Part shown: positions 11,621 to 29,333 of the stretch, one piece after another | Layout: each line of letters starts with the position of its first letter | How positions within the stretch are numbered: position 1 is the stretch's first letter | Made by a program: the position numbers and the translations under genes | Assembly (NCBI GenBank): GCA_964523425.1 | Contig: CAZFYY010000002.1 | Span: 1 to 61,042 of the forward strand | DNA length: 61,042 nucleotides | Origin: an uncultured Gammaproteobacteria bacterium | GTDB taxonomy: Bacteria > Patescibacteriota > Patescibacteriia > Patescibacteriales > Patescibacteriaceae | Direction: 5' to 3' | Notes under the pieces: generated by a model | Told to the model about the DNA's origin: nothing | Databases searched by the model: none | Seen by the model: only the letters and a program-made list of their open reading frames with translations

Positions 11621-11997
11621 GGGGATGCCAGGCTTTGACAATAAATTTTGCCTATTCACGCAGAAGGCGCTGGTCCCGCCCAAAAAGACCAACCTACAGT
11701 TGCAAAAACTGCCAAAGCCGAATCGCCTGCTTTCTCTTGGAAAGTAGCGACTCTCGCTTACGCTGCCGCCTAAGGGCCGCAGCCATCCGCCCAGCTTGCT
11801 CGCGCGCTGGTTCACGGGTGTCATTCAGCGAGCTAAGTTAACGGAGGCCGTTTGAGCCCGTTAGACGAAAACCTTCAAGCTAATCCTTTTCTTTCTTGTC
11901 AGGCCCTAAGGAAAAGGATGAAATACCGGACCTGACTAATTCTGTAGCCGTGTTTGGGTCGATTTATTAGACAGGGGTTCAACTCCCCTCATCTCCA
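11621..11997 (+). ncRNA. ssrA: tmRNA
   Basis: 5' GGGGATG pairs with 3' CATCTCC-A with a G3-U pair; T arm AGGGGTTCAACTCCCCT; tag ORF 11711-11773 AKAESPAFSWKVATLAYAAA*; directly after smpB. Confidence 0.93.
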
Positions 11998-12019
11998 CAA
12001 GCCACAATGGCTTCAGATC

Positions 12020-12105
12020 GCCGGAGTGGCGGAACTGGTAGACGCGGCGGACTTAAAATCCGCTTGTACTAACCTGCAGTGAGGGTTCGAGTCCCTCCTC
12101 CGGCA
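12020..12105 (+). tRNA. tRNA-Leu(TAA)
   Basis: GCCGGAG/CTCCGGC-A acceptor stem, anticodon arm GCGGA-CTTAAAA-TCCGC, long variable arm, GTTCGAG. Confidence 0.93.
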
Positions 12106-12109
12106 CTGA

Positions 12110-12160
12110 ATAATTAATAAATTAAAAAATTAATTAATTAATTAATTAATTCATTTATTT
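12110..12160. repeat. AT-rich (TAAT)n low-complexity palindromic spacer
   Basis: AATTAATTAATTAATTAATTAATT run between tRNA-Leu and tRNA-Gly. Confidence 0.7.
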
Positions 12161-12161
12161 T

Positions 12162-12236
12162 GCGGGTATCGTATAATGGTTATTATATTGCCTTGCCAAG
12201 GCAGAGATACGGGTTCGATTCCCGTTACCCGCTCCA
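12162..12236 (+). tRNA. tRNA-Gly(GCC)
   Basis: GCGGGTA/TACCCGC-TCCA, anticodon loop TTGCCAA, GGTTCGATTCCC. Confidence 0.93.
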
Positions 12237-14000: not shown

Positions 14001-14073
14001 GCACCCGTAGCTCAATGGATAGAGCACTTGGCTTCGGACCAAGGGGTTGTGGGTTCGAATCCTGCCGGGTGCA
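14001..14073 (+). tRNA. tRNA-Arg(TCG)
   Basis: GCACCCG/CGGGTGC-A, anticodon arm CTTGG-CTTCGGA-CCAAG. Confidence 0.92.
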
Positions 14074-14090
14074 CAGGTGAAGCTAATAAG

Positions 14091-14130
14091 TTAACTAATG
14101 AATAAATTTCCGAATTTGTTCATTAGTTAA
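14091..14130 (+). repeat. AT-rich inverted repeat in tRNA spacer
   Basis: TTAACTAATGAATAAATT-TCCG-AATTTGTTCATTAGTTAA, 18-bp stem with one G-U. Confidence 0.8.
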
Positions 14131-14155
14131 TTTGTTAATTGAAACATTTTATACT

Positions 14156-14227
14156 GCACCCATAGCTCAGCGGTAGAGCAGTCGCCTCTTAAGCGAATGG
14201 TCGTAGGTTCGATCCCTACTGGGTGCA
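14156..14227 (+). tRNA. tRNA-Lys(CTT)
   Basis: GCACCCA/TGGGTGC-A, anticodon loop CTCTTAA, GGTTCGATCCC. Confidence 0.9.
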
Positions 14228-14231
14228 CAGA

Positions 14232-14304
14232 ACAATTAAAAAATTAATAAATTAAAGAATGAACTAATTATTTCATTAGTTAATTTATTATTTAGTTAAT
14301 TTGT
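14232..14304 (+). repeat. AT-rich imperfect inverted repeat in tRNA spacer
   Basis: TAATAAATTAA-AG-AATGAA ... TTCATT-AG-TTAATTTATTA. Confidence 0.65.
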
Positions 14305-14308
14305 ATTT

Positions 14309-14382
14309 GGCTGGGTAGCTCAGTTGGTTAGAGCGTAGCACTCATAACGCTAAGGTCGAGAGTTCGAGCCTCTCCCCAGCTA
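14309..14382 (+). tRNA. tRNA-Met(CAT), probably elongator (Ile2 not excluded)
   Basis: GGCTGGG/CCCAGCT-A, loop CTCATAA; lacks the initiator 3 G-C anticodon pairs and C1:A72 mismatch. Confidence 0.88.
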
Positions 14383-26059: not shown

Positions 26060-26281
26060 ATGGCTCTATCCGTTTCCTTAGAATCGATTGATGACAACGC
26101 TACTCTCAAGGCGGCGGATGGTTCGTTGATTTCTTGCCCCATAGATTTATTGCCGGCCGGCGCCTTTATTGGTCAAAAGCTTTGGCTTGATCTCAGTCTG
26201 ACTGAGCCGCTCGAAGCGGCTCCGGCGGCCATTTTGAATGAAATACTCAAACCTCATGACGACGTGGAAAAAACTACATAA
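26060..26281 (+). CDS. Small hypothetical protein (DUF3006-like)
   Basis: 73 aa tightly packed between hsp20 and vanW; PIDLLPAGA..G pattern. Confidence 0.55.
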   Translation: MALSVSLESIDDNATLKAADGSLISCPIDLLPAGAFIGQKLWLDLSLTEPLEAAPAAILNEILKPHDDVEKTT

Positions 26282-28115
26282 TTCCCTGCCGGATTGGTTG
26301 CTGATAGTAATCACCGTCTTTGTCGCGGTCTTTTTTTTAAGTGCTTTGCTGGCTGGCGGTCTGCTGTTTGCCTATCAGGATCGCATGCTGCCTAATCTGA
26401 GCGTGGGCGGAGCGTATGTCGGCGGCATGGATTTCCCGGCGGCCCGCGAAGCGGTTGCCCGCAAGGTTTCCGCTCTGGAAAAGGGCGTCTCTGTGCGGTT
26501 CAATACTAATGAATATCTACTTTCGCCTGAAGTTGGCTCGCTTGACCCCGACCTTGCCCCGTCGATCGTGTTTGATGATGAGGCAAGCTTTGTTCACGCC
26601 GCGGCAATTGGACATAGCGGAAAATACCTGTCTGATGCTTTCGTGACCCTCGGAGCAATGCTGCAAGGTAGACAGTTACCGTTGGCCGTTTTGCTTGATA
26701 AGGAGAGGGTTGCGGCGGAACTTAAGACGGCCTTTGTTCAGTACGAACAGCCCTCCGTTGATGCGCATCTAGCAATCAATGCTCAGGGAGAGGCGAAAAT
26801 TATTGCCGAAGTTGACGGAGAGGTTTTTGATTACGCAAAGGCGGCTATTGCGGCAGAAGAGCGTTTTGCCACCGGCAACACTGCGCCTATCGAATTGCGA
26901 CTGCAGCCTATCAGGCCCACTATCATGCTGTCGGAAATCGACCAGCGTACCGTCCAAGAACAAGTGGATCGCCTGCTTGAAACACCGTCCGCTCGTTTGA
27001 TATTTGAAAAGAAAGAATGGCTTTTAGATAAAAAAGTATTACGTTCGTTGTTGGGGTTAGTGAAAATCGATGGGACGGTTCGGGTAGGAATCGACCCGGT
27101 ATTAGCCAAGGCATATATCGAGAAGGAGGTAGTGCCGGCTGTTGATCGAGAGCCGATTCAGGCGCGCCTCGCTATTGAAAACGGCCGAGTTTCAGTATGG
27201 CAGGAAGGTAAGGATGGGATTGCAGTTGATCGCGATGGTACAATTGCGGCGATTGTCGCCTGGCCGGCTAGCGGAATTTCTGAAGTTTCCGTCGCGGTTT
27301 CGCGAACCCCGGCTAAGTCGGCAGACGAGAGTGCCGAAGAGATGGGCATTAGGGAAATCATTGGTACGGGTACTTCTAAGTTCTCTGGCTCTCCGGCAAA
27401 TCGTCGCCACAATATTAAAACAGGCGCCATGGCCCTGCACGGCTTGCTTATTAAACCGGGAGAAGAGTTTTCTCTTTTGAAGGCGCTGGGCAATATCGAT
27501 GCCAGCAATGGATACCGCACCGAATTGGTTATCAAGGGAAATAAGACAATACCGGAATATGGCGGCGGGCTTTGCCAGATTGGCACAACGGTTTTCCGGG
27601 CGACGTTCAATACGGGATTGCCGGTAACTCAGCGGCGCAATCATTCTTATCGAGTTTCGTATTACGAGCCGGCCGGCACCGATGCTACGATTTACGATCC
27701 GGCCCCCGATTATCGCTTCGTTAACGATACCGGACACTATATTTTAATTCAGGCACGCCTAGGTACTAACGAGTTATCCTTTGATTTTTGGGGAACCAAG
27801 GACGGCCGTCAGGTGGAAGTCACAAAACCGACAATTTATAATATAGTCGCGCCAAAGCCGACCAAGATTGTGGAAACTCCTGATTTGCCGGTTGGCCAGA
27901 AGAAGTGCACGGAAAGCGCTCATGCCGGCGCCGATGCCTTCTTTGACAGTAAGGTTACCTACGCGGACGGAACTGTAAAAGAGAAGCGATTTACTTCGCA
28001 TTATGTTCCATGGCAGGCGGTTTGTTTAGTGGGAGCGAAGAAGGCGGAGACCACTGTTCCGCCGGCCGGAACCCCTACATCGACAGTTTCGCCAACCGCT
28101 ACGCCCGTCCAATAA
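26256..28115 (+). CDS. VanW family protein with peptidoglycan-binding repeats
   Basis: N-terminal TM; NRRHNI, PGEEFS, GGGLCQIGTTVF, RRNHSY, GTDATI; G5-like tail. Confidence 0.9.
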   Translation: MTTWKKLHNSLPDWLLIVITVFVAVFFLSALLAGGLLFAYQDRMLPNLSVGGAYVGGMDFPAAREAVARKVSALEKGVSVRFNTNEYLLSPEVGSLDPDLAPSIVFDDEASFVHAAAIGHSGKYLSDAFVTLGAMLQGRQLPLAVLLDKERVAAELKTAFVQYEQPSVDAHLAINAQGEAKIIAEVDGEVFDYAKAAIAAEERFATGNTAPIELRLQPIRPTIMLSEIDQRTVQEQVDRLLETPSARLIFEKKEWLLDKKVLRSLLGLVKIDGTVRVGIDPVLAKAYIEKEVVPAVDREPIQARLAIENGRVSVWQEGKDGIAVDRDGTIAAIVAWPASGISEVSVAVSRTPAKSADESAEEMGIREIIGTGTSKFSGSPANRRHNIKTGAMALHGLLIKPGEEFSLLKALGNIDASNGYRTELVIKGNKTIPEYGGGLCQIGTTVFRATFNTGLPVTQRRNHSYRVSYYEPAGTDATIYDPAPDYRFVNDTGHYILIQARLGTNELSFDFWGTKDGRQVEVTKPTIYNIVAPKPTKIVETPDLPVGQKKCTESAHAGADAFFDSKVTYADGTVKEKRFTSHYVPWQAVCLVGAKKAETTVPPAGTPTSTVSPTATPVQ

Positions 28116-28121
28116 AAGAAT

Positions 28122-28154
28122 AAAAAAACCGCCGCTCCGAGGAGCGGCGGTTTT
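28122..28154. terminator. Bidirectional intrinsic terminator
   Basis: AAAAAAACCGCCGCTC-CGAG-GAGCGGCGGTTTT. Confidence 0.85.
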
Positions 28155-28313
28155 GTAAAGTCCACCTAAAGCGGGTAGGCAAGAAATTTTCATCAGAAGG
28201 AACCTAGTCGTAACCGAGTTTTTTCTGACGAAGAAATCCCCATGCTTGTCGTGCCTAGCCCGCTTCAGCCGGACTTTATTTTGAGTGGTCATGTATTACC
28301 TCCTTAAGGTAAT
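28122..28313 (-). ncRNA. Candidate structured small RNA (~190 nt), family unassigned
   Basis: Own promoter and terminator; 5' 7-bp hairpin; 123-nt rod (28156-28278) with G-U pairs on the minus strand and a UACG terminal loop. Confidence 0.6.
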
Positions 28314-28318
28314 TTACG

Positions 28319-28347
28319 AGTATAGCACAGCTAATTTTATTTGTCAA
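28319..28347 (-). promoter_or_regulatory. sigma70 promoter of candidate sRNA
   Basis: TTGACA-17 nt-TATACT with extended TG. Confidence 0.8.
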
Positions 28348-28474
28348 TACCTGGGCGGGATAACGTTATATTTTGTCTAATATTAGCTAATTTATTATGT
28401 AAAGAGGGTGATTTCCTGATAATTTCCTAAAGCAATAAAAAACGGGACGCAGGGGTCCCGTTATGGTATGTAAC

Positions 28475-29224
28475 TTATGTAGTGCTTTGTTTCGTTCGTC
28501 GGAAAAAGGTGTTTATGGCGATAATTCCCGTCATGAGAATGAATTCATCTTGGATATTGTCGACATGATGCGGCTCAATGCGAGCCGAGGCATCTCCTTC
28601 TTTAAAGGCGGAGACGTGGAAACTGCGCGCCGATCCGTCTGCTAGGCCAAGATATATGCCTGAGCGAAAAAGGTGAACACACATATCCTCTTCGTCGTAG
28701 CCATATATCTGTAGGTGCGCTTTGCGCATCCAGCTCTCTACTGACGAGCTCAATTCGCGCAAAACTTCCGAAGGGGCGTTGCGAATAAAACCGAGCAGAG
28801 GTGCGTAGAGATGGCCAATTCCGCCGCTCCGGTCGGAGAAGTCAAAGGATTGGTTGTGGCGTATTTTTAATGCGCTCTCGTGCGTGTCATGCCACAGATA
28901 TATTTCATGAATAAATGACATGAGCTCAGCGAGTTCATCTGCTTTGGCCCGCTTGATAACTGTTTGTCCGCCGCAGAGCGGACAGTTTTTGCCATGGGCA
29001 TGACGGACTTGGCAGGCGAGGTGCTCCTGAGCGGGCCAGGGCCACGCCTGAGAAAATATGTTGGACTGGCCGCTAGCCAGAGCTTCGTGTTGCGTGGCGA
29101 GAAAGCGCTGTTTCTTTTCATCAGGCACGGCGGCAATGTAGTCGTTAATGAAATCAGCCGCAAAGCCAAAAATTAGTTTTGTCCCGGTTTCATCCCCGGG
29201 GTGGAGAACGATATCTACGAGCAT
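28475..29224 (-). CDS. Hypothetical protein with CxxC/His putative metal site
   Basis: HLACQVRHAHGKNCPLCGG; start set at ATG 29224. Confidence 0.6.
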   Translation of the reverse strand: MLVDIVLHPGDETGTKLIFGFAADFINDYIAAVPDEKKQRFLATQHEALASGQSNIFSQAWPWPAQEHLACQVRHAHGKNCPLCGGQTVIKRAKADELAELMSFIHEIYLWHDTHESALKIRHNQSFDFSDRSGGIGHLYAPLLGFIRNAPSEVLRELSSSVESWMRKAHLQIYGYDEEDMCVHLFRSGIYLGLADGSARSFHVSAFKEGDASARIEPHHVDNIQDEFILMTGIIAINTFFRRTKQSTT

Positions 29225-29333
29225 AGCCTGTATATTTAATTTTGAAATAACTGGTATCGTGCCTCTATTAAACAGCAAGACCGGCTAATAGTCAATTGCC
29301 GGCCAAAAGCTGAAGAAGGAAGCCTTTATTGGA

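Follow-up and report, generated by a model that had tools for sequence, protein, structure and literature searches.

We identified, on the minus strand of the window (the whole stretch of 61,042 nucleotides that was analysed), a small gene for a rod-shaped RNA that is conserved across its class as a stand-alone unit, and we are somewhat inclined to regard its product as a protein-binding decoy or scaffold. The conserved unit is a rod of about 125 nt; the hairpin with a Shine-Dalgarno (SD) sequence that precedes it in the source genome is a variable 5' leader. Conservation, covariation and the possession of its own promoter and terminator support the proposal of the first-pass annotation that this is a new small RNA family, and one without a counterpart in Rfam. 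A scan of the region against Rfam returned no family at gathering level, and its matches at E<=10 were those expected by chance; scans extended to the whole window and to 20 diverged loci likewise stayed at chance level. A literature search, covering mostly open-access main texts, found no paper on this RNA.

The gene begins with a sigma70-type promoter, TTGACA-17-TG-TATACT (28347-28319, minus strand), which matches the consensus at 11 of 12 positions and was the best among eight sites scanned in 5 kb. The leader (28313-28279) contains a small hairpin with arms at 28313-28307 and 28301-28295 (minus strand), enclosing AAGGAGGU. The 123-nt rod (28278-28156, minus strand) folds at -59.5 kcal/mol (z -8.6), a value equalled by none of 200 shuffled sequences, whereas the plus strand reaches -47.4 kcal/mol (z -6.3). 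Its helices and UACG terminal loop are as first described, and the asymmetric bulge proves to be one-sided and 10 nt long (CGACAAGCAU, 28251-28242). An intrinsic terminator (28154-28122, minus strand), with a stem of 13 pairs (28154-28125) followed by U7, faces the 3' end of the convergent neighbour vanW, a gene for a VanW-domain/PG_binding_4/G5 protein (26238-28115, plus strand) that lies outside the RNA gene. Promoter, hairpin, rod and terminator had all been predicted by the first-pass annotation and are confirmed. On the other side, a terminator-like site (28441-28462, minus strand) isolates the gene from a 267-aa ORF (28475-29278, minus strand) that separates a glycosyltransferase gene from the rod gene and matched nothing in Pfam or NCBIfam. 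Two relatives from the same genus have the glycosyltransferase gene directly upstream of the RNA, with no such ORF between. The promoter and terminator suggest that the rod gene is transcribed. In one metatranscriptome (X1, a single RNA run), four contigs of relatives lie over 28123-28277 and two in vanW; they give neither strand nor ends and are no evidence of transcription. No contig of relatives lies over the leader.

By blastn, 93 of 101 relatives have the RNA. We built a covariance model (R1) on 75 dereplicated copies, and it matched 140 of the 150 genomes examined in the class (ABY1), 138 of them at E<=0.001, nearly always in single copy. The core motif occurs in records labelled Ca. Falkowbacteria, Uhrbacteria, Kerfeldbacteria or Patescibacteria. 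Before alignment, 12 of 153 core matches were left out (11 without a 3' partner and one incomplete), and a further 22 with longer spacing, four of them probably due to chance, were set aside. Tandem duplicates of the rod gene were found in four genomes (G291:C2, G384:C29, G309:C3 and G345:C6); in some of them the upper stem is shared and the lower stem differs.

A gene with a VanW domain flanks 38 of 50 homologous loci, and the unit terminates after the rod, usually converging on vanW. Upstream of the rod gene, tig or clpP was found at 10 of the 50 loci; no genes for RNA-binding proteins were present among the conserved neighbours. In a sample of the phylum, R1 matched all seven genomes of the class and three of 143 others, two of the three convincingly. 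The match L195 looks spurious, and the same genome carries a real copy beside vanW (L327). Among 70 loci behind vanW in other classes we found further, diverged copies that share the lower stem and have a variable bulge of 2-11 nt (L329, L328, L327, L309, L306, L352, L355 and L360, with weaker ones besides). A strict descriptor scan of 73 vanW-side loci recovered L193 alone; fold and promoter scans and R1 gave more. Also behind vanW, L300 (G178) is possibly a distant member of the family: a rod preceded by a promoter, with a CGCCAAGC bulge and branching in its upper part.

The helices of the rod are free in sequence and constrained in pairing. In the alignment of 99 copies, both partners vary in 46 of the 51 pairs, the compensatory pattern that the first-pass annotation had proposed to look for, and 86.6% of pairing cells are filled by pairs, against 58.5% in shuffled and 39-53% in slid alignments; these counts lean towards the model because the alignment was fitted to it. 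In an unfitted alignment, two-sided changes occur in 12 of 17 predicted pairs. G-U outnumbers A-C on the minus strand across homologues (376 vs 190). Of 247 distinct homologues, 195 have a promoter within the preceding 150 nt, compared with 22 in shuffled controls, and a U-tract, or a hairpin followed by U, comes after the rod in 206 of 246.

Three features of the rod hardly vary. The first is the junction CA-CGACAAGCAU-GG, near-invariant in the 99 copies, which stands opposite the conserved 3' strand YYCUUG (28186-28180, minus strand); below the bulge this strand forms pairs with C-A, and above it with GGRR (28241-28238) in a helix rich in wobble pairs. Single-sequence and consensus folds agree on a bulge of 10 x 0 nt. 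Variants including L055 and L127 speak against an alternative CAAG/CUUG register. The second feature is the apical element (28215-28206, minus strand), in which the G28215-U28206 wobble is kept in 99 of 99 copies and the adjoining G28214-C28207 pair in 98. The loop beyond these pairs (UACG here) is free, and the apex accepts long insertions. The third feature is the spacing: measured on the 3' strand, the bulge junction and the apical step are 25 nt apart in 75 of the 99 copies (range 24-27).

Within the bulge, the pattern C-GANRA-G is found in 98 of the 99 copies, and the remaining copy (L241) reads C-GAAA-G, a plain tetraloop from which the N is missing. In this C-GA(N)RA-G pattern, C, G, A, A and G are nearly unchanging, and the N position is filled by C, A or U or lost; all 99 copies fit the substitutions that a GNRA-like loop with a single looped-out base would show. 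We predict that the lone pair C28251-G28245 closes a GNRA-like GACAA loop with C28248 looped out; the pair never varies and so receives no support from covariation. By analogy, the bulge may fold as C-(GACAA)-G in the manner of the boxB loop of phage P22. That loop is a GACAA pentaloop with a GNRA-like fold, which binds an arginine-containing peptide and whose looped-out C is bound by an arginine (PMC12550061). The loop sequence is the same in both RNAs, and the variable third base of the rod falls at the position that is looped out in boxB. Unlike the boxB hairpin with its stem, the predicted loop would be closed by a single C-G inside the bulge of a long rod, and no N-like protein was found. 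The vanW-side homologues in other classes, L193 included, have shorter or different bulges, so the GACAA loop is not a feature of every family member.

The core pattern was also matched by five viral contigs, whose viral status rests on the label of the collection and a few phage-type genes. They hold three distinct elements scoring 33-55 bits (L374, 54.7 bits; L372, 33.7; L373/L375, 33.3), all with the bulge and the apical GG/CU retained and the AGG/CCU of the mid-stem lost. A blastn search of the INPHARED phages returned no match to the rod. Two of the three viral elements are near groEL, one beside groES-groEL and the other 1.8 kb from groEL (L374:2975-5116 and L372:2449-5551).

Since helix sequence is free, and two invariant features at a fixed spacing are kept even in viral copies, we propose that the rod is contacted by protein at two sites. 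The GNRA-like loop jutting from the one-sided bulge would be the first contact point and the invariant G-U/G-C step some 25 nt away the second, together forming a two-point binding site for one core host protein or complex, for which the RNA, acting in trans, would serve as decoy or scaffold. If the rod does bind a protein, RNA polymerase is the first candidate partner, a tentative choice, and an RNA that bound it would be an analogue of 6S RNA and not its orthologue. Reduced Patescibacteria genomes retain few non-coding RNAs. The rod RNA is kept in about 93% of the class, compared with 32 of 150 genomes in which 6S was found and none in which SRP was, and this retention suggests a core job. 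A more specific version, which we hold to be possible but rather doubtful, is a hitherto unrecognized housekeeping ribonucleoprotein of Patescibacteria, in which the RNA serves as a ruler replacing lost SRP or 6S in a novel way; viruses would then carry copies to seize or titrate its partner, the partner system being important enough for that. The small size of the RNA, its two invariant sites and their fixed spacing make the partner directly testable.

The first-pass annotation had also suggested a divergent 6S RNA. Several traits of the rod recall 6S (ssrS; RF00013): it is a stand-alone rod with closing and apical stems and its own sigma70 promoter, it has unpaired bases on the 5' side at its centre, and its conserved apical element lies at a constant spacing. 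In contrast to 6S, its bulge is one-sided, with neither a 3' bubble nor a mimic of a -10 element, no 6S model gives it a score, and it lies beside vanW, whereas 6S lies beside peptidase M50 and tRNA-Pro. A two-sided bubble is described as the defining feature of 6S, and some bacteria are reported to carry two 6S genes (PMC8876501). RF00013 gave the rod no score at E<=10, and matched neither the source genome nor any of 150 class genomes.

The canonical 6S loci of Patescibacteria (L165-L185, L272-L296 and L502-L513) are usually located between a peptidase M50 gene and tRNA-Pro(GGG). In the phylum sample, RF00013 found 6S in 21 of 150 genomes, five of them above the cut-off, and 15 of the 21 positive loci are directly behind an M50 gene. 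A model trained only on Patescibacteria 6S RNAs from other classes (R2) found 66 of 150 phylum genomes, including 15 that had contributed to its training, and in the class 20 of 150; 19 of those 20 also carry the rod at another locus. The 6S loci of the class have a GGGA...CCGUGG...CCCAC anatomy and often a visible promoter, with M50 as neighbour at four of 15 loci and tRNA-Pro at 11, and RF00013 recognized none of the 15. The true 6S of the phylum (M50 - 6S - tRNA-Pro), mostly missed by Rfam, can now be modelled. A refined model that includes eight class sequences (R3) identified canonical 6S in 32 of 150 class genomes, 29 of which have the rod elsewhere too. Neither R2 nor R3 matches the rod, and R1 had no match at the 6S position of 22 loci bearing 6S. 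Because 29 genomes carry both RNAs at different loci, the rod is a gene separate from 6S, and orthology with 6S is unsupported; it may nevertheless do a 6S-like job.

Canonical 6S in the class is patchy or too diverged to see. R3 found it in none of 101 genomes of the order to which the source genome belongs, which suggests loss. In the source genome (94% complete) we looked behind M50 and upstream of all tRNAs, and searched with nhmmer, a motif scan and R2/R3, finding none; two single-contig relatives of the genus likewise yielded none. The M50 stop (G000:C42:11234) and tRNA-Pro GGG (G000:C27:4294-4365) of the source genome are unlinked and have no adjoining 6S.

The rod might be a 6S paralogue, a second and strongly derived copy imitating an open promoter, with the bulge templating short product RNAs and the wobble helix melting on sigma70-RNA polymerase, and its presence might have allowed this order to lose the canonical gene. 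We regard this as unlikely. It would fit the rod shape, the strong promoter, the single copy, the failure to find canonical 6S in the 101 relatives or the source genome, and the existence of two 6S genes in some bacteria (PMC8876501). On a four-part profile of the rod family, E. coli ssrS (L164) also outscores 200 of 200 shuffles, its segments lying at matching places. However, this likeness was first seen by eye and is absent from nine other 6S RNAs, and one of five SRP RNAs also reaches 0/200 shuffles by chance, in an unrelated register. The bubble is one-sided at 10 x 0 nt (opening of the wobble helix would make it roughly 15 x 5), the rod lacks the GGGA...CCCAC motif found in Patescibacteria 6S, and the reciprocal silence of the models and the co-occurrence in 29 genomes count against a derived 6S. 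Moreover, neither RNA was seen in many families of other classes.

A relic of SRP (4.5S) RNA, repurposed after the loss of Ffh and FtsY and bound by another membrane-targeting or nascent-chain factor, is in our view quite improbable. The Ffh M domain (PF02978) and RF00169 were each found in none of 150 genomes of a phylum sample that includes G101-G249, PF00448 is below the cut-off in the source genome, and loss of SRP subunits has been noted in the CPR (PMC8080830). In size and two-site geometry the rod recalls 4.5S RNA (PMC5454536, PMC4091067). Like 4.5S RNA (ffs; RF00169), the rod measures some 115-125 nt, is single-copy and has two sites about 25 nt apart. In five SRP RNAs a CR/UG step lies, by eye, 22-26 nt from the G of the symmetric loop, similar to the 24-27 nt of the rod, and some members of the rod family have UCAGG opposite CUCGA. 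The tig or clpP genes upstream at 10 of 50 loci and groEL near two viral copies would also suit an SRP relic. Described features of SRP RNA include symmetric and asymmetric Ffh-binding loops and a GNRA or URRC apex (PMC4091067). The rod has no such symmetric or asymmetric loops, no ACCA asymmetric loop near its apex and a GNRA apical loop in only four of 99 copies, and it possesses an extra invariant bulge of 10 nt; moreover, no Ffh was detected in the phylum sample. The A-C mismatch of SRP RNA is shared by only 11 of 99 copies, and the rod has G-U and G-C where SRP RNA has its G-G and G-A pairs. RF00169 gave it no score even at E<=10, there is no profile similarity in the homologous register, and the step in common is only 2 bp.

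More improbable still is an antisense or guide function in trans, in which the bulge would base-pair with a conserved target, for example 16S rRNA around positions 1040-1055. The bulge region is complementary to CAUGG(U/C)UGUCGU of 16S rRNA at 11 of 12 positions in three of four class 16S genes, and the best duplex, at -16.3 kcal/mol, forms at that site. Yet a central G-G mismatch is fixed, the fourth 16S gene matches at 10 of 12 positions, and the target sits in a paired helix, helix 34. Natural variation in the bulge (C replaced by A or U, a deletion, or absence of AU) disrupts the pairing with 16S rRNA and preserves the loop pattern. No other candidate target of the bulge stood out in the source genome.

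Finally, an mRNA that encodes a small basic or toxic peptide and is locked against translation, akin to the type I toxin mRNA put forward in the first-pass annotation, or a cis-regulatory leader, has a negligible probability and is refuted as a trait of the family: a perfect SD and ATG (28292) do precede an 88-codon frame in the source genome (to 28026), stop-free up to the terminator as had been claimed, but this frame has no Pfam or NCBIfam match, is interrupted by a stop in 175 of 247 homologues and belongs to a unit that ends behind the rod, in most cases facing a convergent vanW. The leader is variable, with an SD-like sequence in nine of 195 homologues, and SD, ATG and open frame coincide in one of 246, so the reading as a toxin mRNA fails; a conserved reading frame, which the first-pass annotation had weighed against conserved pairing, was not found in the homologues.

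The window further contains an ordinary tmRNA and five tRNA genes (11621-12233 and 14001-14382), and the tmRNA and RNase P RNA of the source genome (G000) both lie away from the rod locus. Upstream of the rod gene, a near-palindromic GCTAATATTAG (28387-28376, minus strand) lies 28 nt before the -35 box and is a candidate operator or activator site. A similar element was found upstream of 43 of 195 homologue promoters. In the source genome, AATATTAG precedes six of 218 promoters, and GCTAATATTAG(C)-like palindromes are located 28-37 nt upstream of the -35 box at several strong promoters (window 28376-28387; G000:C1:73678, C23:10000 and C42:1992), one of which drives a Sigma70_r4 and HARE-HTH protein. 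It is possible that these palindromes mark a small regulon.
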